Below are positions 383-64,000 of a DNA stretch of 64,000 nucleotides, one piece after another. The translations under genes and the position numbers were made by a program. Location: the NCBI GenBank assembly GCA_038228545.1, contig JBBRPE010000004.1:161-64160 (forward strand). The letters run 5' to 3'. Numbering within the stretch: the stretch's first letter is position 1; each line of letters opens with the position of its first letter. The notes beneath the pieces were generated by a model, which was given only the letters and a program-made list of their open reading frames with translations, did no database searches and was not told where the DNA came from. This DNA is from Minisyncoccia bacterium. Lineage in GTDB: Bacteria > Patescibacteriota > Minisyncoccia > Phycocordibacterales > Phycocordibacteraceae.

Positions 383-1810
383 ATGCGTATTCTCATAAGT
401 GCTGTTACAGCGTTATCGCTTTTTGTATCAGGTTTTGCTTTCATCCCAGCCCTTGCGTCTGCACAAACAGCAGACGATTATGGCACAGGTCAAGCAGCTA
501 CAGCAGCTTGTCCTCAACTTTCTCAAACGATGGTGCGCGGTGCGAGAGACAGCGGCACTAACCCGCAAGGACAGGTAACGCAGCTGCAAAGCTTTCTTGC
601 CGACTACTATAATATTGACCCTCAAGAAATCGCGACGGGTTATTTTGGTCGCATTACGCAGGGGTATGTTATCCAGTTCCAAAAAGAGCAAGGACTGCCG
701 TCTTTTGGTATTGCAGGTCAACTCACGCGTGCAGCTATAGCAAAAGTTTGCTCCCAAACTCCTACGACTACGCAGACAAATACCCAAAACACGACACAGA
801 CCAATACTTCAAACACAAATACCACAGCCCCGAAAACTCCTACCAAACCAACGACGGTCTCAGCAGTTGGCGCAACCACAATCGCACTTACTTATCCGCA
901 AGCAGGAAGCGTACTTGCAAACAACAGTGCTAAAAGCAACAACCAGATTGCGACAATTCAATGGAATGAGCAGGGTGGAAATTACCCAATATCACTCTGG
1001 CTACAAAATTCAAATGGCCAAATTGTAAAAGCTATTGCTACCAATATCGCAGACACAGGCAGTTACGTATGGGCGAGTGACCTGTCGCTTCCGACTGGCA
1101 CTTACCAAATCAGAATTGACGTGCTATATCCGTCGGGTGCAAGCGGTCAGGACAGTGCATATAGTGGATATTTCACGCTTCAAAACCAATCACCTTCAAT
1201 TACAGTCACGTATCCTGCTGGCGGTGAACAACTCCAATACAATACTGGTAAAGATGTTGATTTTAGAGTGAACTGGGCAACATCTAATTACTCAAATACT
1301 GTCAACGTTTACCTCGTATCGTCTTCAGGTTCGCAGTGTCTTATCGGTTCCACATCTTCAAGTAATGGCACGTTCCCAATAACTATTGGCGCGAACTTCC
1401 AATGTGCGAATGGTCAGCCAGTGCCTACCTCAGGGCAATACAAAGTGGAAGTTTCAGGTGACGACGGTATCGGCGACGGAAAGGAGGTCGGTAGTTTGAG
1501 CGGCAGCTTTAAGCTTTCTCCCGCGCAATCAACACAGCCGTCCGCTACCATCACAAGTTCTCTCCAAGCCAGCACTCAAGGTAAAAGTGCTGGGCTGGTG
1601 ACCGTTTCTGGTACTGCATCAAACGTCAATCAAGTTATGGTGAGTATCAAGGGACAAACACCCGCATACGCTACCGTTACATACGGCGCGTGGTCAGGAA
1701 CGATTACAAGCGTTTACCCGAACACTTACACGGTTCAGGTAATTGACAACGATGCTGGTGCCAACAACGGTACTGTGCTTGCATCAGGTACGTTGACGGT
1801 CACGCAGTAA
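383..1810 (+). CDS. Secreted protein: signal peptide, PG_binding_1-like peptidoglycan-binding domain, T/N-rich linker, repeated Ig-like beta domains
   Basis: Track ORF 311..1810. The internal Met MRILISAVTALSLFVSGFAFIPALASA reads as a signal peptide. The segment GYFGRITQGYVIQFQKEQGLPSFGIAGQLTRAAIAKV matches the peptidoglycan-binding (PG_binding_1) pattern. A TQTNTQNT low-complexity linker follows, then repeated beta-rich modules. Confidence 0.5.
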   Translation: MRILISAVTALSLFVSGFAFIPALASAQTADDYGTGQAATAACPQLSQTMVRGARDSGTNPQGQVTQLQSFLADYYNIDPQEIATGYFGRITQGYVIQFQKEQGLPSFGIAGQLTRAAIAKVCSQTPTTTQTNTQNTTQTNTSNTNTTAPKTPTKPTTVSAVGATTIALTYPQAGSVLANNSAKSNNQIATIQWNEQGGNYPISLWLQNSNGQIVKAIATNIADTGSYVWASDLSLPTGTYQIRIDVLYPSGASGQDSAYSGYFTLQNQSPSITVTYPAGGEQLQYNTGKDVDFRVNWATSNYSNTVNVYLVSSSGSQCLIGSTSSSNGTFPITIGANFQCANGQPVPTSGQYKVEVSGDDGIGDGKEVGSLSGSFKLSPAQSTQPSATITSSLQASTQGKSAGLVTVSGTASNVNQVMVSIKGQTPAYATVTYGAWSGTITSVYPNTYTVQVIDNDAGANNGTVLASGTLTVTQ

Positions 1811-1828
1811 ATAGCATAGAAAATAAAC

Positions 1829-1858
1829 AAAACACCGCTCGTAACAGGGCGGTGTTTT
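1829..1858 (+). terminator. Rho-independent terminator
   Basis: Hairpin aacaccgc...gcggtgtt followed by TTTTG, directly after the stop at 1810. Confidence 0.6.
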
Positions 1859-2259
1859 GCTATGGTTTAGGCAGTAGCCATCAGGTCTGATATAAAGATT
1901 TGGTAGGCAAAGTTTGACTTTCCACCCAAAAGAGCAGTTCCAACATCGTCCAAGACCCCCAGCAAATGAAAAACCCCGAAAGGGGTCTTTTCATTTGTTG
2001 CGGGAAGCAGACTTGGGAAGTCTGCGGCTAGGACTCGAAGATGTTGCGAGCATAATCAGGGAGCGAAGCGACCCAGATTATCCGCAACGTATACTGCTCC
2101 GTAGGGAGAGAGTCCTAGTCTCGCAGCTTGTTCACAAATTTCACTGGCTGGATGGTATTAGAACCACTCATCATTGTAAAATTGTTATAGTTTAGTTATT
2201 CATACATAATTTGGTGTTTCTTAAGTAAGACGGTTCTATACAAAACGGACAACAATACT

Positions 2260-3027
2260 ATGAAATTAATAGGAAAAACAATCTTGATTACAGGAGGGGC
2301 ATCGGGCATTGGGCTCGAGGCGGCTAAACAGTTTTTGTCCCATGGTCTGAAAGTTATTATTACAGGCCGAGAACAAGAAAAGCTGAATGAAATAAAAAAG
2401 TTATACCCAGGTTTAATCACTATTAAAAGTGACCTAACGAGTGCTGAAGATGCGAAGTCACTTTTGAACCAAGTTAAAGAGTGTGGCGGGATTGATATTT
2501 TGTACAATAACGCAGGCGTCATGAGTCGACCTGCAAACTTAGGAATTACAAATGACAGTCATTTTGCAAATGCAACAAACGAAATAAACACAAACTATCT
2601 GGGAGTGATTCGCCTCAACAATCTTTTTATCGACATGCTGAATTCCAGAGAAGAAGCTGCGATCATTAATACCACTTCGATATTGAGCTACGTGCCGTTC
2701 ATCCTTGCGCCCACATATGCAGCGTCGAAAGTAGCCTTGCGCTTCTATACGGAATCGCTTAGGAGTCATTTGCTAATTATTGGTAGCAAGATCAAAATAT
2801 TTGAATTATTGCCGCCAGTAGTAGCTACTCGCATGGCCGACAATCTCGACACACAAACGATTACCCCGACAAGATTAGTTCAAGCACTGATTGGTGGACT
2901 TACAAAAGACCGGTACACAATACGAGTTGGTAATACAAAATTGGTGTATTTATTGAGTCGACTTTCACCAAAATTAGTATTCAACATTCTTAATTCCAAG
3001 AAGAATGCTCGTTTATTGCAAAAATAA
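2260..3027 (+). CDS. Short-chain dehydrogenase/reductase (SDR) family oxidoreductase
   Basis: N-terminal TGGASGIGLEAAKQF Rossmann motif and YAASK catalytic Tyr-x3-Lys motif. Lies in a low-GC (~40%) island. Confidence 0.8.
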   Translation: MKLIGKTILITGGASGIGLEAAKQFLSHGLKVIITGREQEKLNEIKKLYPGLITIKSDLTSAEDAKSLLNQVKECGGIDILYNNAGVMSRPANLGITNDSHFANATNEINTNYLGVIRLNNLFIDMLNSREEAAIINTTSILSYVPFILAPTYAASKVALRFYTESLRSHLLIIGSKIKIFELLPPVVATRMADNLDTQTITPTRLVQALIGGLTKDRYTIRVGNTKLVYLLSRLSPKLVFNILNSKKNARLLQK

Positions 3028-3511
3028 TCTTTGTCTTATGCTTGGCACTAGTAAACCGATGCTCTTGCAAAGCTCATGTGCATGCGGAACTTGTGGCGTC
3101 GAAGCGACAGTGATTCCAGTAGATCGATTTGTTTGTCACTGCTTGTTTTGCCAAACGTTTACAGGTATGCCGTTTTCGGATGTTACCATCTTTCGTGCTA
3201 AGGATGTTGCTATAAAAAATCCCGATAATCTTTCGTTTAAGAAATATCGGTGGCTTCCCCCACGACTTAATCGGGGACACTGCAGCACTTGCGGAAAACC
3301 GGTTGTTGAGTTGAGTGGCTCAGGATTATTTGCGCTTGTCTTTATCCCAAGTAATAGTTTTTCAAAACAAGAACTGCTACCAGTAATTCAACGGCACACT
3401 TTCTATCATCGACGCATACGAGATGCAGACGACCATTTGCCCAAACACAGCAGTTTTTTGAGTAGTCAACTAGTGCTTATAAAGATGTCTATTCATACCT
3501 TGTTACGTTAG
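3005..3511 (+). CDS. GFA/CENP-V family protein (glutathione-dependent formaldehyde-activating enzyme-like, Zn-binding)
   Basis: CACGTCG...CHCLFCQ...G..F and HCSTCGKPV cysteine motifs match the GFA domain pattern. The true start is probably an internal Met (3038 or 3059). Confidence 0.55.
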   Translation: MLVYCKNNLCLMLGTSKPMLLQSSCACGTCGVEATVIPVDRFVCHCLFCQTFTGMPFSDVTIFRAKDVAIKNPDNLSFKKYRWLPPRLNRGHCSTCGKPVVELSGSGLFALVFIPSNSFSKQELLPVIQRHTFYHRRIRDADDHLPKHSSFLSSQLVLIKMSIHTLLR

Positions 3512-3628
3512 AGCCCATTTGGACAGGAATGGTCAGATCCACTGGCTGGATTCGAGGCTAGATACTGCCTAAAAAAGTTCCCACGTCGTACCAAATTCCG
3601 GCCACAAAAGCTGACGTATGCTGGGCAC

Positions 3629-3978
3629 ATGCTCAAACAGAATCTGTATGCGACTCCCTTCGCAAGGGTCTATCCGTACTACATTGCGAAGGCTGAGAAA
3701 AAAGCCGAACAAAAGCAGAAGTCGATAAGATAATTCGTTGGTTAACGGGGTATACCTCGAAGGGACTGGAAACACAACTGAAGAAACAAACAGACTTTGA
3801 GACTTTTTATACCAAGGCTCCCAAAATGAATCCTTCGCGAGTGTTAATTACTGGTGTGATTTGCGGTATTCGCGTCGAAGAAATTAAAGACCCGCTTATG
3901 CAGGAAATTCGTTATTTCGATAAATTAATAGATGAATTGGCAAAGGGGAAAGAAATGTCCAAGATTTTGAGAACGTAA
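3629..3978 (+). pseudogene. DUF2200-like small protein gene split by a frameshift at an A6 homopolymer (3698-3703)
   Basis: Frame 1 (3629..3733) reads [34 protein letters not shown]. Frame 2 continues ...[90 protein letters not shown] and ends at 3978. Adding one A to the gagAAAAAAgcc run fuses them into a single ~111-aa protein. The DUF2200 assignment is from memory of the family. Confidence 0.5.
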
Positions 3979-4039
3979 TTCTCCGGTTCGGTTAACACGT
4001 TCGTGCCTACTGTATTTACAGTGATTCTAAGTTCTGAAT

Positions 4040-4342
4040 CTAGTACGATTGCAAGCTCACAAACGTAAGTGTGATTAGTGTTACTGCACCGAATATACCG
4101 AGAGATTTTAGAAAATACGACAGCGCTTCAGCCTTCTTATTTTCTATCAGTTTGAGTACTGGTTGATAGAAAAAGAGAAACGCCATAATCGCTGCTGAAA
4201 ACACCACGAGTGAAATCAATCCCATACTGTCAAGCAGTGTGTCCGGAGTGTCGTGACGAAGTGAACCAATAAAGTGTATAAACAGTGCCACGGCACCAAT
4301 ATAGGCTGCAGCCGTGAATGCACTTAGAAACGGATTCTTCAT
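4040..4342 (-). CDS. Small integral membrane protein (3 predicted TM helices), function unknown
   Basis: 100-aa ORF with hydrophobic segments AAYIGAVALFIHFIG, LISLVVFSAAIMAFLFF and LGIFGAVTLITLTFV. Confidence 0.45.
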   Translation of the reverse strand: MKNPFLSAFTAAAYIGAVALFIHFIGSLRHDTPDTLLDSMGLISLVVFSAAIMAFLFFYQPVLKLIENKKAEALSYFLKSLGIFGAVTLITLTFVSLQSY

Positions 4343-4479
4343 ATAGTGACTATAACCCCATAGAAGCCCCTCTAGTTACTGGTGGAAGAACTGCAACGGT
4401 AATCGCAGCAGCACCGTGCTTGGAAAAGATATATACTAGGGAGGTAAAAGAGTGTTTCTATAAATAACCGTTTCAATAT

Positions 4480-4812
4480 ATGAAGAAATTTATGGTGCTG
4501 TATATGATGCCGGCCGCAGTAATGGCTGAGATGATGAAAAACAGTACTCCAGAAATGAGAGAGAAGGGAATGAAGGAATGGAAGGATTGGATGGAAACCC
4601 ACAAAGCTGACCTCGCTGAATTTGGCGGCTCGTTTGGGAAAAATATGCGTGTCACCAAAGAAGGCGGAACCATGCAGTCAAATGACCTTGGCGGCTATTC
4701 TGTTATTCAAGCTGAATCGCAGGAAGCAGTAGCCAACATTTTGGCAGACAATCCGAGTTTTTCCGACATGCCCGGTTCTTACATTGAGGTCATGGAAATC
4801 ATGACGATGTAA
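4480..4812 (+). CDS. Hypothetical small cytoplasmic protein
   Basis: 110-aa ORF with protein-like composition. A terminator hairpin lies downstream at 4844..4868 (acccct...aggggt + GTTTT). Confidence 0.4.
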   Translation: MKKFMVLYMMPAAVMAEMMKNSTPEMREKGMKEWKDWMETHKADLAEFGGSFGKNMRVTKEGGTMQSNDLGGYSVIQAESQEAVANILADNPSFSDMPGSYIEVMEIMTM

Positions 4813-4843
4813 AGCAGGGTGTGCGGGACGTAGTAAGTAAAAT

Positions 4844-4868
4844 ACCCCTTCGCTAAAGGGGTGTTTTA
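4844..4868 (+). terminator. Rho-independent terminator
   Basis: acccct tcgctaa aggggt followed by GTTTT. Confidence 0.5.
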
Positions 4869-4972
4869 CTTTCAGGGTTGTGGCGTCGTACCACAGGTAG
4901 TCGCTTCTTTCTCCGTGGTAGCGGTGTATGGCACCTCATGAATCCTACAGACAATTTTGTTATACTGCGGGC

Positions 4973-5458
4973 ATGCAAAAAATCACACCCTTTCTCTGGT
5001 TCGATAGTGAGGCTGAAGAGGCAGCGCAATTCTATGTAACTATCTTTCCAAACGCAAAACTCGGTGACGTCGTGCGATTCCCGGGTGGTGGGGAAGAAGT
5101 GACGGGTAAACCTACTGGGTCGGTAATGACAGCAGAATTCGAAATTGACGGACAAAAATTCGTAGGTCTAAATGGTGGCCCACACTTTAAATTCTCTGAA
5201 GCTGTTTCGTTCCTTATCGGATGTAAGGACCAGGAAGAAATAGATTACTACTGGGAGAAGCTCGCCGAAGGAGGGACTGAAAGTCAGTGTGGCTGGCTCA
5301 AAGATAAATTCGGACTCTCCTGGCAGGTAGCGCCGACAAACATGGCAGAGTTTATGAAAGGCTCTACACCGGAGGGCTCAAAAGCTGCAATGCAGGCAAT
5401 GCTGAAGATGAAAAAAATAGTCATCGCCGACCTCGAAGCTGCACGTGATTCGGTGTAA
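4973..5458 (+). CDS. VOC superfamily protein, PhnB-like (3-demethylubiquinone-9 3-methyltransferase domain)
   Basis: MQKITPFLWFDSEAEEAAQFY...FEIDGQKFVGLNGGPHFKFSEAVSFLIGCKDQEEIDYYWEKL is typical of PhnB/glyoxalase-like DUF (PF06983). The start is taken at an internal Met of track ORF 4928..5458. Confidence 0.7.
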   Translation: MQKITPFLWFDSEAEEAAQFYVTIFPNAKLGDVVRFPGGGEEVTGKPTGSVMTAEFEIDGQKFVGLNGGPHFKFSEAVSFLIGCKDQEEIDYYWEKLAEGGTESQCGWLKDKFGLSWQVAPTNMAEFMKGSTPEGSKAAMQAMLKMKKIVIADLEAARDSV

Positions 5459-5460
5459 GA

Positions 5461-6084
5461 ATGAAAAAGCCTCAGGTAAAGCGAGCGGAGCTTGCGCATC
5501 AGTCTTTGGTGCCAGGGCCGGAAGTGTATGCAACTGACTCACTACTGGTGGGTCTTGCATTTGCAGACACAAAAATCGGAGTGCTCACATTTGATGAGTC
5601 CGTCATTGAGAGTAGCGCATTCACTAGTATGAAAGCAGCAGAGCTATCCTTCAGTGACTGCATTGTTGAGAAATGCGATTTCACGGGAGCAGAGCTTAAT
5701 TCAGCACAGATGAATCGTGTGCATATAAAAGGCTCTCGTATGCAAGGAACCAGTCTCCCGGAAGCCTTGATAACGGATACTCGTATAGAGGTATCGAAGC
5801 TGAACGATGCCAACTTCCGGTTCTCAAAGTTGAAAGGAGTTTCCTTTGAGAGGTGCGAGATGGAAGGTGTGGACTTTATGGGTTGCACGCTCGAAGACGT
5901 TGCGTTTCTCAACTGTAATCTAAAAGGAGCACAGTTCTTGAAAGTAAAAATGAATGACGTGCGCCTTACAACTTCCGAGATAGAAGATATCAAGATAGAT
6001 AAGGACAGCATCGCCAAAGTTACGGTCTCAAGTGCTCAGGCGCTCTATCTCTCGGGTGTACTCGGCCTTACGATAGAAGATTAA
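5461..6084 (+). CDS. Pentapeptide-repeat protein (Qnr/MfpA-like)
   Basis: Tandem A(D/N)LxG-type pentapeptides: AELSFSDCIVEKCDFTGAELNSAQMNRVHIKGSRMQGTSL...ANFRFSKLKGVSFERCEMEGVDFMGCTLEDVAFLNCNLKGAQF. ~207 aa, as for Qnr-family proteins. Confidence 0.7.
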   Translation: MKKPQVKRAELAHQSLVPGPEVYATDSLLVGLAFADTKIGVLTFDESVIESSAFTSMKAAELSFSDCIVEKCDFTGAELNSAQMNRVHIKGSRMQGTSLPEALITDTRIEVSKLNDANFRFSKLKGVSFERCEMEGVDFMGCTLEDVAFLNCNLKGAQFLKVKMNDVRLTTSEIEDIKIDKDSIAKVTVSSAQALYLSGVLGLTIED

Positions 6085-6114
6085 GAACTCGTTAGGGCCT
6101 GGTAGACTAAGAGT

Positions 6115-6828
6115 ATGACTCGCGTACCCACCCACAAAGAGCTCCATACCGGCTCAATGAACAATCGCCTGAATTGGCTTCGGGCATCGGTGCTCGGTGT
6201 GAATGACGGCATCATCTCGCTTGCGGCGCTTGTGGTGGGTGTTGCTGGTGCTTCAGCTACCTCAGGAACTATCCTCGTTACAGGCATCGCTGGGCTCATC
6301 GCCGGGTCACTTTCCATGATGGTAGGCGAGTACGTCTCCGTATCCAGCCAACGCGATACTGAGCGCGTACTCCTTGAAAAGGAACGTCATGAACTCAAGC
6401 ATGAGGCAGAAAGCGAACTCGCTGAGCTGACGGATATATATGAGCGAAAAGGACTTACACCCGCGACCGCGAAGCAGGTCGCGCTTGAACTTACTGCACA
6501 TGACGCATTTACCGCGCATGTGGAAGCAGAGCTCGGTATTGATCCCAATAACTTAACCAATCCATGGCAGGCAGGTATCGCGTCAGCCATTGCGTACTCA
6601 GTCGGTGCACTCATTCCACTACTTACTATCGTACTTTCCCCGATAGGGACGCGCGTTACGGCTACGTTTGCGGCTGTGCTCGTGGCACTTATCATCACTG
6701 GTATCGTCAGTGCGAAGGTTACTGGAGCACGCGTGCTTCCCGTCACTGTGCGCGTCGTGCTTGGCGGCATATTCGCAATGGTGGTTACCTTCGGTATTGG
6801 TAAGCTCTTCAACGTATCAGTTCATTAG
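6115..6828 (+). CDS. VIT1/CCC1 family iron/manganese transporter
   Basis: NWLRASVLGVNDGIISLAALVVGVAGA signature of the VIT family (PF01988), an internal charged loop, and C-terminal TM helices. Confidence 0.75.
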   Translation: MTRVPTHKELHTGSMNNRLNWLRASVLGVNDGIISLAALVVGVAGASATSGTILVTGIAGLIAGSLSMMVGEYVSVSSQRDTERVLLEKERHELKHEAESELAELTDIYERKGLTPATAKQVALELTAHDAFTAHVEAELGIDPNNLTNPWQAGIASAIAYSVGALIPLLTIVLSPIGTRVTATFAAVLVALIITGIVSAKVTGARVLPVTVRVVLGGIFAMVVTFGIGKLFNVSVH

Positions 6829-6871
6829 TCGGAACCTGGCACAGGATGCCTAACCTGGTACACTCCACACC

Positions 6872-7756
6872 ATGTACGACGTACTGCTTTTCTATTCATA
6901 CGTAACGGTCGAAGACCCACAAGCCCTTATGGAGTGGGTGCGTACGACAGCACAGAAGCTCGACCTTACTGGTCGAGTGCTTATTGCTGAAGAAGGAATC
7001 AACGGAACACTTGAGGGTCTTCCCGAAAATACGGCACTATTTGCCGAGGCTATCACTAGCGACGCTCGCTTTGCAGATATGTCGATAAAGCACAGTGCCG
7101 GAACGGGAGATGCGTTTAAGAAACTCTCTATAAAGGTACGTGATGAAATAGTGGGTACGCAGTTTCCAAAGGACGTAGACCCACGAACAAAGACCGGAAC
7201 ACGCCTTACTCCTGAAGAGCTCCGTAGTTGGTATGAAACCGGTCGCGATTTCGAAATTATCGATATGCGTAATGACTACGAATTCCGTTCCGGGCACTTT
7301 AAGAATTCAATAAATCCGGGACTTGAGGCGTCGAGAGATTTACCGAGCGCACTCCCTAAACTCGAAGGACTTAAAGACAAGACCGTACTTACCGTCTGCA
7401 CCGGAGGCGTGCGGTGTGAAAAGATGTCGGCCTATCTGCTCTCTCAGGGTTTCAAAGATGTCTATCAACTTGAGAATGGCATGCATGGCTACATGGAAAA
7501 ATATCCGGGACAGGATTTCGAGGGGACTCTCTACACGTTCGACGAGCGACTCACGATGGATTTCGGCGGGAATCGAGAAATAGTTGGGAAGTGCCATCTT
7601 TGTGAGTCGGCAACTGAGACCTATGTAAACTGCGGCAATAATTTCTGTCACCTGCATTTTCTCGTTTGTGAGGATTGCATCGGGGAATCAGTGACCTACT
7701 GCAGTAGCGAGTGTCGTGTACGTATAGAGGAAGCCGAACAACAGCTCCATGGCTAA
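6872..7756 (+). CDS. trhO: tRNA uridine(34) hydroxylase TrhO (rhodanese-domain protein, UPF0176/YceA family)
   Basis: N-terminal MYDVLLFYSYVTVEDPQALMEWVRTTAQKLDLTGRVLIAEEGINGTLEG is characteristic of YceA/TrhO. Rhodanese module with active-site Cys (CTGGVRCEK) and a C-terminal Cys-rich tail. Confidence 0.75.
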   Translation: MYDVLLFYSYVTVEDPQALMEWVRTTAQKLDLTGRVLIAEEGINGTLEGLPENTALFAEAITSDARFADMSIKHSAGTGDAFKKLSIKVRDEIVGTQFPKDVDPRTKTGTRLTPEELRSWYETGRDFEIIDMRNDYEFRSGHFKNSINPGLEASRDLPSALPKLEGLKDKTVLTVCTGGVRCEKMSAYLLSQGFKDVYQLENGMHGYMEKYPGQDFEGTLYTFDERLTMDFGGNREIVGKCHLCESATETYVNCGNNFCHLHFLVCEDCIGESVTYCSSECRVRIEEAEQQLHG

Positions 7757-8996
7757 GCAAAAAGTACTCCACGACGTCATCATCGTGGGTGGGGGAGCGG
7801 CGGGCATGATGGCTGCGGGAGTAGCTGCAGCAAGGGGTAAGCGCGTTCTTCTGCTTGAAAAGAACGCCAAGCTTGGCGAGAAACTTTCCATATCGGGTGG
7901 TAAACGCTGCAATATCCTCAACGCCGAACGTGACCAGAAGAAACTGCTTGCGAACTACGGAAGCTCGGAGCAATTTCTGTACTCGGCTTTTTCGAAGTTC
8001 GGCATGCAGGACTCGTTTAATTTCTTTGAAGAGCGAGGACTTCCGCTCAAAGTAGAAGCACGTAACAGAGCCTTTCCAAAAAGCGAGCACGCCCGGGATG
8101 TGGTTGATACGCTTCGTGCCTATCTCGTAGAAGGCAAGGTACAGATAAAGTTGAATGCGCAGGTCACAAAAATTAAACATAAGAATGGAACTATAGAGTG
8201 TGTCGAGGTCGCCGGTGAGCCTTTCTATGCTGACTCCTACGTGTTTGCTACTGGTGGACTCTCTCGACCTTCAACAGGTTCGACCGGAGACGGATTCAAC
8301 TGGCTTACCGAGCTCGGCCACACTGTAGCAACACCTACTCCCGCAATCGTCCCGCTCAACGTAAAAGAAAAATGGGTAAAAGACGCAGCAGGCATAGCCC
8401 TACCAAACGTAAAAGTAGCCTTTGCAGTAGACGGGGTTCGCTCTTTCTCTAAGACCGGTCCACTACTTTTCACGCATACCGGTATCTCTGGACCGGTCGT
8501 ACTTAATTCCTCGGCGAAGGTAGCAGACCTCTTTCAAGAAGGGGAAGTAACCGTACATATTGATATGTTTCCTGACCGCGACCTCGGCTCGCTTGATGAA
8601 CAGCTAACCGATTTGTTCGCACGTAACAAAAATAAAGACGTAAAGAATGTACTAAAAGAGTTCGTACCGGCCGGTATGCCGAGTGTACTGCTCTCTCGTA
8701 TACCTGAGATGCCAGCAGAAGCAAAAGTGAACGGAGTAACCAAAGAAATCCGTCGTACACTCCTCGAGCTTTCGAAGAATTTTACTCTCACCGTTACCGG
8801 ACTTGCCGGCTTCGAGAAGGCCGTGGTGGCTGACGGCGGAGTTCCACTTACCGAGATTGATATGCGCACGATGCATTCGAATACAATCGACAATTTGTTC
8901 GTTATTGGCGATTTACTCCACATCAATCGTCCGTCCGGTGGCTTCTCACTGCAGCTTTGCTGGACGCTCGGTTATACGGCAGGAATGAATGCTTAG
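7749..8996 (+). CDS. HI0933-like (BaiN/aminoacetone oxidase family) NAD(P)/FAD-dependent flavoprotein
   Basis: VIIVGGGAAGMMAAGVAAARGKRVLLLEKNAKLGEKLSISGGKRCNILN is the canonical HI0933 family N-terminus. Overlaps the trhO stop by 8 nt. Confidence 0.8.
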   Translation: MAKQKVLHDVIIVGGGAAGMMAAGVAAARGKRVLLLEKNAKLGEKLSISGGKRCNILNAERDQKKLLANYGSSEQFLYSAFSKFGMQDSFNFFEERGLPLKVEARNRAFPKSEHARDVVDTLRAYLVEGKVQIKLNAQVTKIKHKNGTIECVEVAGEPFYADSYVFATGGLSRPSTGSTGDGFNWLTELGHTVATPTPAIVPLNVKEKWVKDAAGIALPNVKVAFAVDGVRSFSKTGPLLFTHTGISGPVVLNSSAKVADLFQEGEVTVHIDMFPDRDLGSLDEQLTDLFARNKNKDVKNVLKEFVPAGMPSVLLSRIPEMPAEAKVNGVTKEIRRTLLELSKNFTLTVTGLAGFEKAVVADGGVPLTEIDMRTMHSNTIDNLFVIGDLLHINRPSGGFSLQLCWTLGYTAGMNA

Positions 8997-14138: not shown

Positions 14139-14395
14139 TGCGTCCGTACGTCGTCTATCTACTGCGCTGCGCTGATGGAACGTTCTACACCGGAATTACG
14201 ACCGATATAACGCGGCGTGTTCGGGAGCACAACCAGGGCACACGCGGAGCGAAGTACACAAAAGCCAGACGGCCGGTAGAGCTCGTCTATCAGGAACAAT
14301 CTTCTTCCAGAAGCGACGCGCAAAAGCGAGAATACGCCGTGCGTACGCTACCTCGTACAGAAAAACAGAAGCTCGCGCGGGTAAAGTCTCCTTGA
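14138..14395 (+). CDS. GIY-YIG nuclease family protein (UPF0213/YhbQ-like)
   Basis: MRPYVVYLLRCADGTFYTGITTDITRRVREHNQG aligns with the E. coli YhbQ N-terminus ([30 protein letters not shown]). The ATG overlaps the upstream stop (TAATG). Confidence 0.75.
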   Translation: MRPYVVYLLRCADGTFYTGITTDITRRVREHNQGTRGAKYTKARRPVELVYQEQSSSRSDAQKREYAVRTLPRTEKQKLARVKSP

Positions 14396-14430
14396 CCTAG
14401 GGTCGGTACCCCCGTATCGTAGGGAACGGC

Positions 14431-60943: not shown

Positions 60944-61261
60944 ATGCTGAAGGAAGCTCAAAAAGAGCTTGATGATTGGGCACAGACACTCGAAGAGCCC
61001 TACTGGCCTGCGCTCTCGCAGATGGCAGCACTTACTGAAGAGACCGGCGAAGTCGCGCGTCTTCTGAATCACATATACGGAAGCAAACCGAAGAAGGTAG
61101 AAGAAGCGCACCAAGAGCTTGGTGGCGAGCTTATCGATGTCATCTTTGCCGCGATGTGCCTTGCTAATCGCCATGGCATAGATCTTGATACAGAGTTCAA
61201 GGCGAAGATGGATAAATGTTACGGGCGCGATAAAGATCGCTTCGCAAAGAAAGCAGAATAA
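60944..61261 (+). CDS. MazG-like nucleotide pyrophosphohydrolase (small all-alpha NTP-PPase)
   Basis: ALTEETGEVARLLNHIYGSK...EELGGELIDVIFAAMCLANRHGIDLD fits the EExGE...E..D metal-binding pattern of the MazG/HisE fold. Confidence 0.65.
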   Translation: MLKEAQKELDDWAQTLEEPYWPALSQMAALTEETGEVARLLNHIYGSKPKKVEEAHQELGGELIDVIFAAMCLANRHGIDLDTEFKAKMDKCYGRDKDRFAKKAE

Positions 61262-61263
61262 GT

Positions 61264-62157
61264 ATGAATCTCTACCAGGAACGTTCAAGTAATATCTGGC
61301 GCACTGTCTTGCTTATGGTGGGCTTCTTGGCTGTGGTTATTTCTCTCGGGTATGCAGTCTCGTGGTACTACAATTCGCCAAGTATTTTGTATGTCGCCGT
61401 AGCGTTTGCGGTGTTAATGAATTTCTACAGCTACTGGTTTAGCGATAGTCAGGTGCTCTCTATGACCAACGCACGCCCAGCACTTCGTGAGGAGTTCTTC
61501 GACTTCTACACAGTCGCGGAAAACATGGCCATAACGGCAGGTCTCCCTATGCCGAAGCTCTATGTCATAGAAGACCCGGCACCAAATGCGTTTGCCACCG
61601 GACGCGACGAGAAACACGCGGTTGTGTGCGCAACGACCGGACTCCTTTCTATGATGACGCGCGTGGAGCTTGAGGGTGTTATTGCGCACGAGATGTCTCA
61701 CATTAAGAATCGCGACATTCTTCTTATGATGGTGGCAGTTGTGCTTGCAGGATTTACGGCTATTATCGCTGACATATTTCTACGCATGTCATTTTGGGGT
61801 GGAGGACGCAGTAATCGCGACAACGGCGGGGGAGGACTTCTCATGATTCTCGCCATCGTCGGCATCATCCTCGCACCTATTGCTGCTCAGCTTATCGAAC
61901 TTGCTATATCACGTCGTCGTGAATACTTAGCGGACACTTCCGGCGCACTTCTAACGCGCTACCCCGAAGGTCTCGCCTCAGCTCTCGCGAAGCTCGGAAA
62001 TTATCAGGCACCCATGCAGCGCGTCTCGCACGCCACCGCACATCTCTTTATAAGCGACCCCTTCGGACCAGCTAAGACCGATTTCATAGATAAACTTTTT
62101 TCTACGCATCCACCGATTGCAGACCGTATTAAGGCCCTTATGGGTACGGCGAAATAA
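61264..62157 (+). CDS. htpX: Zinc metalloprotease HtpX (M48 family)
   Basis: HEMSHIKNRD (HExxH), four TM helices, and a C-terminal third metal ligand region. Confidence 0.88.
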   Translation: MNLYQERSSNIWRTVLLMVGFLAVVISLGYAVSWYYNSPSILYVAVAFAVLMNFYSYWFSDSQVLSMTNARPALREEFFDFYTVAENMAITAGLPMPKLYVIEDPAPNAFATGRDEKHAVVCATTGLLSMMTRVELEGVIAHEMSHIKNRDILLMMVAVVLAGFTAIIADIFLRMSFWGGGRSNRDNGGGGLLMILAIVGIILAPIAAQLIELAISRRREYLADTSGALLTRYPEGLASALAKLGNYQAPMQRVSHATAHLFISDPFGPAKTDFIDKLFSTHPPIADRIKALMGTAK

Positions 62158-63785
62158 CGTTCTGTGCTATAACAAACGAGCACGGAGGCGTCGCATAGCG
62201 GTCTAGTGCGCACGCTTGGAAAGCGTGTGTGGGGCAACTCACCGAGAGTTCGAATCTCTCCGCCTCCGCAGATAGAAACTTCGAGTTCGGACAGAGCCGC
62301 GCCGCAAAGCGGCGTGGCAGAATGGGCGGGCAGAAAATGCCGCCGCGAAGCGGCGAATTGGCTCGGCGTGGGGAATACGAAATGCGGGGATTTGTCACGA
62401 ACCGAAGGGTTCGTTCCGATTTTTTGCACGGATGATTTGATTTGGTACAAATCATCCGATTGGGACAAAAAATCGGCTTGTTTCATATCTAAAATCCACT
62501 CCCGCAGGGGTTCGACCCAAGCATTTCTCCCGCGTTCAAAATCTTTCTTCTTCTCCCGCAAAGCGACGAGGGAGCGCATGAGTGCGTCCTTGCGCTTCAA
62601 GTACATCTCTTTCGGCACATCACCGTCTAAATACGCCGACACCAGTTTTTCCATGCGCTCCTCGCTTGCTTTGATACTGTCGGAAAGATTTTGAACCTCG
62701 CTTTGCGACGTTCCAACCTCCTCGCGCTCCCATTCCTTCACTTTATTAAGCATCCAATCGGTGTAGCGATTGCAAAGCGAGATTGTTTGAAGCCGTGCCT
62801 TTATTTTGTCGGCAAGGTCGGCCTCGCGGACATACGGTTGCGAGCAGCGGCCGCGCTTCTTGGAACACCGATAGTAGCGATACTTCGTACCCCAGCGATT
62901 AGTAGCCCACTGCGCGGAAATCATGCCACCGCACTCGCCACAGCGGAATAGCCCGACAAGCGGAAAATCATGCTTCACCTTGCGCGTGCGCGGCCGCTCC
63001 TTGCCCGCCACGACCTTCTGCACGGCTTCAAACAATGCGGGAGTTAGAATCGGCTCAAAGTTTCCATCAAACCATTCCTGACCGTGCTTCACGAATCCGA
63101 TATACACGCGATGCGTCAAAAGCCGTTTGATGGAAACTTTGGCAAGTGGCGTTCCGTTTGAAGTCACCACGTTCAAGTCCGCCAAAAATTGCGACAACGA
63201 AACGAGAGTATGCGACCCTTTGGCGTATTCTTCGTACGCGAGGCGCACGATACGCGCGTTCGTCGGATGCGGTTCAATATTGCGAATGCGCGGGTTGTTT
63301 TGATAGCCAAAGGGTGCGCGATTGAGCCACTCGCCCCGACGCAATTTTTGGCGGACGCCGCGCTTGATATTTTCGGACAGATTGTCGCTGTAATATTTAG
63401 ATTGCCCGAACGCCACTTGCAACATAAATAGTCCCTGCGGGGTCGGTTCAAACCAAAATGTCGGGAAGCGCAAAGACACCACCTTACGCGTGTCTACGGC
63501 GTATATGATGCGCCCGCCGTCAATGCTGTTGCGAGCCAATCTATCGGGATGCCACGCCAATATGCCCACGCCGTCCATTGATTCAATGCGGGCCATCATT
63601 TCGCCGTACACCTCGCGCCCCGGTGTCTTTGCGCTTTTCGACTCTTGAAATTCCTCAAGAATTTCAAGATTTTCTTTACGCGCGATCTCCCGCAACTCAA
63701 ACAGCTGCGCCTCGATGGACATGACTTGCCGGTCATCGTCCTCAGTGCTCTTACGCGCGTATAGAAAATATTTTGGCTTGTTCAT
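62004..63785 (-). CDS. Large serine recombinase (resolvase-like catalytic domain + recombinase domain + Zn-ribbon + coiled-coil); 3' end uncertain
   Basis: N-terminus MNKPKYFLYARKSTEDDDRQVMSIEAQ (catalytic Ser in YARKST), ...GILAWHPDRLARN, recombinase domain, CGECGGMISAQW...YYRCSKKRGRC zinc ribbon, coiled-coil. Start at ATG 63785 (the track ORF runs to 63884 through the right repeat). No in-frame stop occurs until 62004. The frame therefore runs through the left repeat, antisense tRNA-Ser and antisense htpX, so the last ~130 codons are probably not genuine. Confidence 0.75.
   Translation of the reverse strand: MNKPKYFLYARKSTEDDDRQVMSIEAQLFELREIARKENLEILEEFQESKSAKTPGREVYGEMMARIESMDGVGILAWHPDRLARNSIDGGRIIYAVDTRKVVSLRFPTFWFEPTPQGLFMLQVAFGQSKYYSDNLSENIKRGVRQKLRRGEWLNRAPFGYQNNPRIRNIEPHPTNARIVRLAYEEYAKGSHTLVSLSQFLADLNVVTSNGTPLAKVSIKRLLTHRVYIGFVKHGQEWFDGNFEPILTPALFEAVQKVVAGKERPRTRKVKHDFPLVGLFRCGECGGMISAQWATNRWGTKYRYYRCSKKRGRCSQPYVREADLADKIKARLQTISLCNRYTDWMLNKVKEWEREEVGTSQSEVQNLSDSIKASEERMEKLVSAYLDGDVPKEMYLKRKDALMRSLVALREKKKDFERGRNAWVEPLREWILDMKQADFLSQSDDLYQIKSSVQKIGTNPSVRDKSPHFVFPTPSQFAASRRHFLPAHSATPLCGAALSELEVSICGGGEIRTLGELPHTRFPSVRTRPLCDASVLVCYSTERYFAVPIRALIRSAIGGCVEKSLSMKSVLAGPKGSLIKRCAVACETRCMGA
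62184..62268 (+). tRNA. tRNA-Ser (anticodon GGA)
   Basis: Acceptor stem GGAGGCG/CGCCTCC, anticodon stem CACGC/GCGTG with loop TTGGAAA, long variable arm (TGGGGCAACTCACC), T-arm GAGAG-TTCGAAT-CTCTC, discriminator G. CCA is not encoded. Folded by eye. Confidence 0.8.
62266..62395. repeat. Left copy of a 130-bp GC-rich inverted repeat, starting in the last 3 nt of tRNA-Ser
   Basis: Reverse-complement identical (129/130) to 63811..63940. Contains internal hairpins gccgc aaa gcggc and cgccgc gaa gcggcg. Confidence 0.85.
62398..62429 (+). terminator. Putative intrinsic terminator just inside the left repeat boundary (cgaacc gaag ggttcg + TTCCGATTTTTT)
   Basis: Seen in sequence; a T6 run follows the stem. 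Confidence 0.45.
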
Positions 63786-63810
63786 ATTAGTTTTTGGATT
63801 GAAACAAGAG

Positions 63811-63940
63811 ACAAATCCCCGCATTTCGGATTCCCCACGCCGAGCCAATTCGCCGCTTCGCGGCGGCATTTTCTGCCCGCCCATTCTGCCACGCCGCTTT
63901 GCGGCGCGGCTCTGTCCGAACTCGAAGTTTCTATCTGCGG
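63811..63940. repeat. Right copy of the 130-bp inverted repeat, immediately upstream of the serine recombinase start
   Basis: Reverse complement of 62266..62395 with one mismatch (A/C). Its inner edge is 26 bp from the recombinase ATG. Confidence 0.85.
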
Positions 63941-64000
63941 TGACATATTAGCCTTTGCTCGAACTCACTTCGCACGCGCCACGTGCGTGGTGGCTTGAGA

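Follow-up and report, generated by a model that had tools for sequence, protein, structure and literature searches.

Serine-integrase prophages such as phiC31, Bxb1, A118/LI and SPbeta (SprA) encode recombinases built from resolvase, recombinase and zinc-ribbon/coiled-coil domains and are bounded by hybrid junctions with a short core. These features recur in an element located near the end of a 64,000-nucleotide (nt) stretch of DNA from a Minisyncoccia bacterium (Patescibacteriota; assembly GCA_038228545.1, contig JBBRPE010000004.1, positions 161 to 64,160), hereafter termed the window, in which the gene of a large serine recombinase (LSR) is enclosed by long inverted repeats next to a tRNA-Ser gene. 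In comparison to the serine-integrase prophages, the arms of the attachment (att) site are duplicated here in inverted orientation, an intact attP is kept inside the element and lies within the recombinase reading frame, the att-linked repeats measure 110-370 nt and not ~50 bp, and integration is directed to the very 3' end of tRNA or transfer-messenger RNA (tmRNA) genes. In addition, no separate directionality factor was identified, only a small XRE-type helix-turn-helix (HTH) gene. The inverted duplicated attP, the attP in the integrase frame and the length of the repeats place the element outside the described serine-integrase architecture. Integration events that change the product of a gene spanning attP are known from other systems. 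In cluster G mycobacteriophages, which show integration-dependent immunity, attP lies inside a gene, and the truncated product is the repressor and not the integrase. For SSV-type archaeal integrases, integration alters the product of the gene that spans attP (PMC8371274). In parallel to these cases, the LSR described here loses its conserved C-terminal helix. Both systems, however, employ tyrosine recombinases, SSV splits its gene mid-way, and in neither of them is the missing part retained as a spare inverted copy. No description of this LSR family or of its layout was found in the full-text literature searched, the coverage of which is incomplete, so that prior mention elsewhere is possible; a note made earlier on this DNA had likewise held that LSRs between long inverted repeats are not a standard described architecture. 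Here, the window probably contains the tRNA-proximal end of a small LSR-driven integrative cassette that is common in Patescibacteria and carries a second, inverted attP.

Attachment-site anatomy at the tRNA-Ser gene and in related loci

The integration target in the window, which represents the B half of attL, is a tRNA-Ser(GGA) gene on the plus strand (62184-62269 in the ARAGORN prediction; Rfam tRNA at 62184-62268 with 55.6 bits). Its last 3-4 nt are shared with one arm of an inverted repeat that is composed of two arms of 131 nt each, arm B at 62266-62396 and arm A at 63810-63940, with a spacer of 1413 nt and a sole mismatch at 62377(A)/63829. A 51-nt core of the arm occurs twice in the window, both times within the arms, while no occurrence is expected by chance. 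Read on the minus strand, arm B can be assigned as the P' arm of attL and arm A as the P' arm of the intact, inverted internal attP, located 24 nt upstream of the LSR start codon. The overlap between tRNA and arm B delimits the core and putative crossover region (62266-62271, CCGC[AG]), which is common to the tRNA 3' end and the element. Beyond arm A, the window contains the first 60 nt of a further repeat, the P arm (63941-64000, TGACATATTAGCC...; IR2-R in the relatives), which carries the motif GCTCGAAC at 63957-63964, a motif found family-wide. These features largely agree with the earlier note, which had reported a near-perfect inverted repeat of 130 bp with one mismatch, its anchoring on the 3' end of tRNA-Ser(GGA) and an enclosed recombinase, now identified as an LSR by its Resolvase, Recombinase and Zn_ribbon_recom domains. 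The GC-rich character of the arm (61.8% versus 50.9% in the window and 52.1% in the LSR body), its two internal hairpins (both fold locally, z about -2.2) and the stem plus T-run following the left arm (62397-62414 plus TCCGATTTTT) were also recovered, and the ATG at 63785 was correctly placed, with its distance to the right arm to be corrected from 26 to 24 nt. What had been missed is that the arms are att-site arms, that the left arm is coding and that a second repeat pair exists.

The comparison with relatives utilized 80 loci taken from species-representative genomes, out of more than 593 that matched. LSR homologues number in the thousands, with 55-96% identity and all of them in Patescibacteria, and their alignments extend through the arm into 'GGIRT'-type tails that correspond to antisense tRNA T-arms. 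Of the 68 loci in which the gene is complete, approximately 65 have an LSR bounded on both sides by arms that measure 107-160 nt and share 90-100% identity. Arm B overlaps by a few nt the 3' end of a gene for a tRNA (Ser, Glu, Ala, Arg, Lys, Gly, Pro or Ile) or for tmRNA, and the LSR is always convergent with this target gene (~65 loci). The closest homologue (locus L001) is located next to a tRNA-Ser(GCT). In every locus, arm A is followed by the conserved motif ...ATTAnCCTTTGC[GT]CGAAC..., and where enough DNA is available, the P arm forms a second inverted repeat of 150-370 nt with ~99-100% identity that overlaps arm A by 4-12 nt and has its partner copy 1.1-9 kb further on, at attR. An alignment of the three junctions in 19 related loci revealed a core of 4-12 nt that is common to attL (arm – core – tRNA), to the intact inverted internal attP (arm – core – P arm) and to attR (unrelated host DNA – core – P arm). 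Starting from the tRNA, the elements consist of attL, LSR, inverted attP, the small HTH gene together with variable cargo, and attR, and they span 3.1-11 kb in total. At the level of sequence comparison, the arms are the P' arm, which is present in both attL and the internal attP. The related loci follow the pattern predicted for attP x attB recombination, i.e. attL and attR with a short core, and in the window this pattern is represented by attL and an empty site. The latter is provided by three syntenic relatives (L121-L123) that contain GroES-GroEL-LemA-HtpX-tRNA-Ser(GGA), with an HtpX 86% identical to that of the window, and no LSR; their homology to the window ends at ...CCTCCGC, position 62269. 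Taken together, these junctions show that the LSR family inserts cassettes at tRNA and tmRNA 3' ends via a short core, and that an intact inverted attP stays within the integrated element; the C-terminal helix of the LSR is replaced upon integration.

The arms of individual elements resemble each other far more than they resemble the arms of other elements. Within the tRNA-Ser subgroup, arms share 97.3% identity within a locus versus 62.9% between loci, and in the 111 of 148 alignment columns that vary between loci, same-locus arms agree in 97.6% of the cells; judged from these alignments, the arms evolve in concert. Two related loci, L018 and L019, are situated on one chromosome; the arms of the copy at tRNA-Glu share 98% identity and those of the copy at tRNA-Arg are decayed (76%), which suggests that arm identity is not maintained after inactivation of an element. 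The arm also contains a palindrome, located in the window at 62296-62318 (GCCGCGCCGC-AAA-GCGGCGTGGC) with a mirror copy at 63888-63910. In most loci, a distance of 29-45 nt separates the start of this palindrome from the core, and the sequence of its stem varies while the pairing is kept. In a position-based scan, the best arm hairpin has a mean stem of 8.2 bp in comparison to 5.2 bp in shuffled sequences; RNAalifold returned no consensus structure for the MAFFT-aligned arms, an alignment that misplaces the variable palindrome. Possible roles are a protein operator or an RNA or DNA hairpin. Here, the res site of Tn3 and gamma-delta (tnpA/tnpR) offers a parallel, as it is a serine-recombinase site in a divergent intergenic region, comparable to that between LSR and HTH gene; res serves to resolve cointegrates, whereas an operator role in the present element is conjecture.

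The recombinase gene and the attP within its reading frame

In the integrated state, the LSR gene extends from 63785 to 62004 on the minus strand, with a conserved body at 62397-63785. At the left arm the reading frame is not terminated but continues through arm B and the antisense strand of the tRNA to a fortuitous stop at 62004-62006, an extension that went unnoticed in the earlier note. The catalytic domain (PF00239, E = 1.7e-21) covers residues 7-153 and includes a YARKST motif with S13 that is nearly invariant among 35 homologues, and it is accompanied by PF07508 and PF13408 (Recombinase domain and zinc ribbon). The predicted model of a homologue (P0009) displays long helices at residues 353-454 with an inserted coiled coil, and the nearest solved structure is that of the SPbeta integrase (E = 1e-16). 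By its domain content the protein is an LSR of the serine-integrase type, for which recombinase activity is predicted; the domains do not correspond to those of a small serine recombinase with a C-terminal HTH of the Hin/Gin type. Exact-sequence look-ups with the window LSR (two start choices), HtpX and the proteins P0001 and P0124 returned no record.

Several observations place attP within this reading frame. Arm B, which also encodes ~44 residues of the C-terminal region (DKSPHFVFP...EVSICG), is stop-free in the LSR frame in 55 of 56 loci, while the other two frames are open in 37 and 20 of the 56. If the uninterrupted site is reconstructed as arm.core.P, nearly all loci have the LSR stop 37-61 nt past the core; in integrated copies its position ranges from 1 to 263 nt past the core. 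The tail encoded by the reconstructed site contains the motif ...CG[DE]I[IL]xFART[HYF]F..., which is in frame in all of the 44 loci and has entropies of 1.04, 0.88 and 1.38 for the three codon positions. In the GCN, ACN and TTY codons of the tail, first positions have an entropy of 0, second positions of 0-0.42 and third positions of 1.1-1.3, i.e. the variation is mostly located at third positions. In addition, the distance between GGAACGAACC in the LSR and GCKCGAAC in the P arm is restricted to 158, 167 or 176 nt, with a single locus at 152 nt. A model of a full-length homologue (mean predicted local distance difference test score, pLDDT, of 79.5) presents a C-terminal helix at residues 514-540 with a pLDDT of 85-90, preceded by a low-confidence linker. 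The window LSR gene reads ...EVSICGGGEIRTLG... into the tRNA, and the only intact window copy of the C-terminal motif together with a regular stop is an orphan inverted copy of the LSR 3' end on the plus strand (RDKSPHFGF...EVSICGDILAFARTHFARATCVVA*, 63807-63998). By these sequence criteria, attP is located within the 3'-terminal part of the LSR frame, which constitutes a functional analogy to SSV1 and not membership in its family. Since the last ~19 codons (the helix ...ILxFARTxF and the stop) are situated on the P side, integration through this attP copy replaces the tail with antisense-tRNA sequence.

Based on this layout, a cycle of integration and excision can be proposed. The excised form would be a circle with two identical inverted attPs, and integration via the attP copy at the LSR 3' end would be its only stable outcome. 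This step would disarm or alter the recombinase and set the LSR against the transcription of the tRNA gene, which would end at a hairpin with T-run at 62397-62424 (plus strand), a terminator-like element for tRNA-side transcripts that is antisense to the LSR KIGTNPSVR codons. The internal attP would retain the promoter region and a spare LSR 3' end. If the arms recombined with each other, they would be homogenised and the LSR segment would be flipped, and the flip would rebuild a full-length gene from the spare 3' end, behind the tRNA promoter and in line with the HTH gene and the cargo, thereby priming excision. Such a switch by flipping of the LSR segment is put forward tentatively and is considered less probable than its absence. 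Somewhat more doubtful is the additional proposal that the C-terminal helix acts as a state-dependent control module, the loss of which would lock the element, while the flip would restore the gene and trigger excision with no separate directionality factor. An engineered fusion of the SPbeta integrase (Int) with its recombination directionality factor (RDF), in which a C-terminally tethered helix sets directionality, provides a related example.

Candidate circular forms and rival explanations

The junction pattern 'LSR 3' end – arm – core – P arm' is present in one of 81 genome loci (L013) and in 34 metagenome contigs, 19 of which carry an LSR and 15 of which do not. Tails were checked directly in the 120 best homologue clusters: the full FART tail was found in 13 of them, all on contigs below 5 kb, whereas tRNA-tailed versions of the LSR are located on contigs of up to 270 kb. 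A protein search with the reconstructed tail of 82 amino acids matched three fragments. Candidates for a circular form are L117 and L118, two MEGAHIT contigs of 4.0 kb with identical LSR and HTH, AAA and adh_short genes, which have neither a tRNA nor host flanks and both ends of which lie inside one copy of a ~370-nt repeat. Judging from the positions of the contig ends, they fit a ~4.08-kb circle with two inverted attPs, and L103, L083 and others also fit a circle with two long inverted repeats. The adjacency of LSR, arm and P arm in L117 and L118 is supported by reads, because k = 141 exceeds the arm length of 134 nt. Contigs of the circle type include ERZ27316799 k141_305327 and ERZ27315558 k141_125627. 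The cargo of L117 and L118 is found in opposite orientations, which was evaluated as a proof of flip-flop recombination and rejected, because the identical P-arm stretch exceeds k = 141 and the orientation may be an arbitrary choice of the assembler. The two P-arm copies of L117 (1885-1900 and 3895-3910) differ only in the length of a poly-G tract, G9 versus G6, which may reflect a slippage-prone tract or assembly noise. A lineage comprising L013, L084, L093, L099 and L091 (88-92% identical mutually) has the LSR between two full attPs with diverged arms, and since this lineage also presents the layout, the state in which the LSR lies between two attPs is real. At L013:1-5400, two complete inverted attPs (227 nt, 96%) accompany a full-length LSR tail, a 3.2-kb cassette for an ATP-binding cassette transporter with its own 99-nt inverted repeats interrupts the P arm, and chromosome-like genes follow (RadC, SpoU, extracytoplasmic function sigma factor, HlyD).

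Several points weigh against an integrative cassette with an inverted second attP and a flip of the LSR segment. Among the approximately 65 integrated loci, none has the LSR co-directional with the tRNA, i.e. in the flipped state. The serine integrases studied to date do not recombine attP x attP or attL x attP (PMC3783163; PMC11722253), so that a flip could proceed only by homologous recombination and is speculative. The contigs that resemble circles come from short-read graphs, in which the orientation of the cargo may be arbitrary. For the window itself, attR and the cargo lie outside its limits, with no second P-arm copy within it, and the completeness of this copy is extrapolated from the relatives; the closest of these, L001, has no P-arm partner within 9.9 kb. 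Furthermore, a promoter scan detected no sigma-70-like site.

The position of the locus at a contig end raises the question of an artefact, and the earlier note had considered a chimeric inverted duplication generated by the assembler. The source contig measures 64,214 nt, only 214 nt more than the window, which ends 60 nt past the right arm and inside the P arm. In approximately half of the loci retrieved, the contig breaks off 45-170 nt past arm A, at a distance that tracks the k-1 of the assembler (~49 nt for k = 55, ~122 nt for k = 127 and ~137 nt for k = 141). These breaks are accounted for by the second repeat pair, as the P-arm repeat starts a few nt inside arm A and breaks short-read assemblies, which also explains why the cargo and attR of the window copy are missing from the contig. 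The same structure is found mid-contig in L001 (193-kb contig, 135-nt inverted repeat and the 1413-nt spacing of the window), in the closed 0.99-Mb chromosome of L019 (CP060229.1) and in about 65 independent loci from many assemblers and samples, with arms that are locus-specific and co-vary. These findings refute the artefact and reduce its probability to a negligible level. A minimal transposon of ~1.7 kb resembling an insertion sequence, with a serine recombinase and 131-bp terminal inverted repeats, would be compatible with a repeat that encloses the recombinase alone and abuts a tRNA at one end. The window and L001 are, on the contrary, identical over a stretch that extends from the last window base across arm A to halfway through the LSR and thus includes the 60 nt past arm A, and on the tRNA side they differ, with divergence only inside the tRNA. 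The mobile unit does not end at the outer repeat ends: arm A is followed in every locus by a conserved motif of the P arm and the host junction is positioned at host.core.P beyond the cargo, which makes such a transposon very improbable. The suggestion of the earlier note that comes closest is an integrative element targeting tRNA-Ser, which gains from the empty site in relatives; its description as a remnant does not hold, since an intact tRNA-proximal end is present instead.

Another interpretation assigns the recombinase to a dedicated switch of the Hin or shufflon type, which would invert its own 1.4-kb segment for phase variation at a locus that is not mobile. Like Salmonella hin and other Hin/Gin systems, the recombinase gene is bracketed by inverted repeats, here long and near-perfect, and inversion would give the gene a different 3' end and a different promoter context, while the concerted arms are consistent with frequent recombination between them. 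Hin and Gin are small invertases with sites of 26-34 bp and an enhancer, whereas the present recombinase is an integrase-type LSR, its repeat ends are att-type junctions, related elements occupy different tRNA genes, an empty site exists and only one orientation occurs in the ~65 integrated loci; a dedicated switch is hence quite unlikely. For the invertible cassette considered in the earlier note, all integrated loci present a single orientation; in a modified form it may nevertheless apply, because inversion between the arms would rebuild a full-length recombinase gene. Two weaker alternatives concern the doubled attP. It could serve a free form, i.e. a plasmid-like circle with flip-flop recombination and copy-number amplification comparable to the yeast 2-micron plasmid (Flp/FRT, 599-bp inverted repeats), with tRNA integration as a side route. 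The presumed small circle, the two long target-bearing repeats and the two unique segments, one of them with the recombinase gene, are common to both; moreover, host-flank-free contigs with both attPs intact occur in many samples, suggesting abundance over rare excision, and the opposite cargo orientations of L117 and L118 as well as the concerted evolution of the arms could be explained. Here, the recombinase is of the serine type, the cargo examined contains no replication or partition gene, attP x attP is unproductive for the serine integrases studied, the difference in orientation may be an assembler choice, integrated copies on long contigs form the majority and the flip-flop is only presumed. 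This alternative is judged unlikely, though less so than the dedicated switch. Finally, a folded single-stranded attP as in CTXphi can be envisaged, in which the two inverted attPs would pair into a duplex substrate of ~340 bp, explaining both the fixed orientation and the matching arms. Formally, the integrated layout equals that of the XerCD-dependent CTXphi prophage, with one inverted att copy intact near the element end and an invariant orientation, and the near-perfect arms are far longer than the 50-bp site of serine integrases. In contrast to CTXphi, the element encodes its own recombinase, which is of the serine and not the tyrosine type, a 1.4-kb gene and not a spacer of ~90 nt lies between the copies, no rolling-circle Rep or other gene of a filamentous, single-stranded phage is present, and the family is almost absent from viral contigs. 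Serine recombinases cut both strands of both partners, and a folded stem would yield hairpin-capped chromosome ends, for which reason this explanation is ranked low and considered highly unlikely.

Cargo, host range and variants among the related loci

The sole recurrent cargo gene encodes the small XRE-type HTH protein (HTH_3), adjoins the internal attP and is divergent from the LSR. The variable cargo includes an aromatic amino-acid lyase, a beta-helix/PKD protein, a cd1-type cytochrome, a pilin, GrpB, a methylase with an HNH/GmrSD nuclease and a short-chain dehydrogenase. In most elements the cargo is co-directional with the tRNA, which leaves the LSR as the one opposed gene. In L001 (7500-9700) and the circle-type L116 (1944-4379), an HTH gene, a DNA methylase and an HNH/GmrSD nuclease adjoin attP, and the unseen cargo of the window element may likewise be a module resembling restriction-modification. 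Pfam scans and precomputed hits revealed no replication, partition, virion or conjugation genes among the cargo proteins examined. Viral contigs yielded no match to the junction pattern and a single relative of the LSR family with 37% identity; since family and pattern are virtually absent from viral contigs, a phage origin is unlikely.

Very few mobile elements have been characterised in Patescibacteria, to which the more than 593 loci of species-representative genomes and the thousands of metagenome homologues are confined. The elements carry single accessory genes (restriction-modification, pilins, surface proteins, cd1-type cytochrome) and may be one of the principal ways in which these reduced genomes acquire genes. 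The layout also accounts for a recurrent contig break in metagenome-assembled genomes of Patescibacteria. Serine integrases are leading tools for the insertion of large DNA; this family, with attP in the integrase frame and a spare inverted copy kept after integration, points to a coupling of enzyme form with integration state that lies outside the standard model, and its layout supplies dozens of attP/attB pairs aimed at tRNA 3' ends.

Several smaller observations concern individual features and loci. In the window, an Rfam search at a permissive threshold over 61000-64000 returned nothing but the tRNA, and the hairpin stem at 62397-62414 was found only in part of the LSR family. The sequence GGAACGAACC (62404-62413 in the window; LSR codons G-T-N-P) is invariant in ~50 loci, synonymous positions included, among homologues that are 55-100% identical. 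It is similar to the CGAAC that occurs in the P-arm motif and in the antisense T-arm of the tRNA, and it may act as a DNA-level site at a distance of ~150 nt to the core. Of the three empty-site relatives, two contain ~680 nt of extra DNA after tRNA-Ser(GGA) (L122:2034-2716 and L123:1756-2438) with an antisense T-arm-like GAGATTCGAACCCCGA, which may be the remnant of another insertion. Integration at the 3' end of the tmRNA gene (ssrA) is represented by L036 (11526-11917), L059 (1754-2141) and L075 (1893-2294). For L056 (1832-1905), ARAGORN calls a target tRNA with the anticodon TTA, a stop-codon reader, that is close to the tRNA-Lys(TTT) of L027 and probably a miscall. L009 presents an array of several inverted-repeat pairs and perfect direct repeats of 127-129 nt (800-8400 and 14311-14398), in which arm B abuts only a tRNA fragment of ~20 nt and an intact tRNA-Ser(GCT) follows 6 kb further on; this array looks like a tandem accretion of elements. 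In the closely related L053 (3817-3904) and L057 (3759-3844), a tRNA-Ser(CGA) gene is situated ~400-600 nt beyond attR, in opposite orientations.

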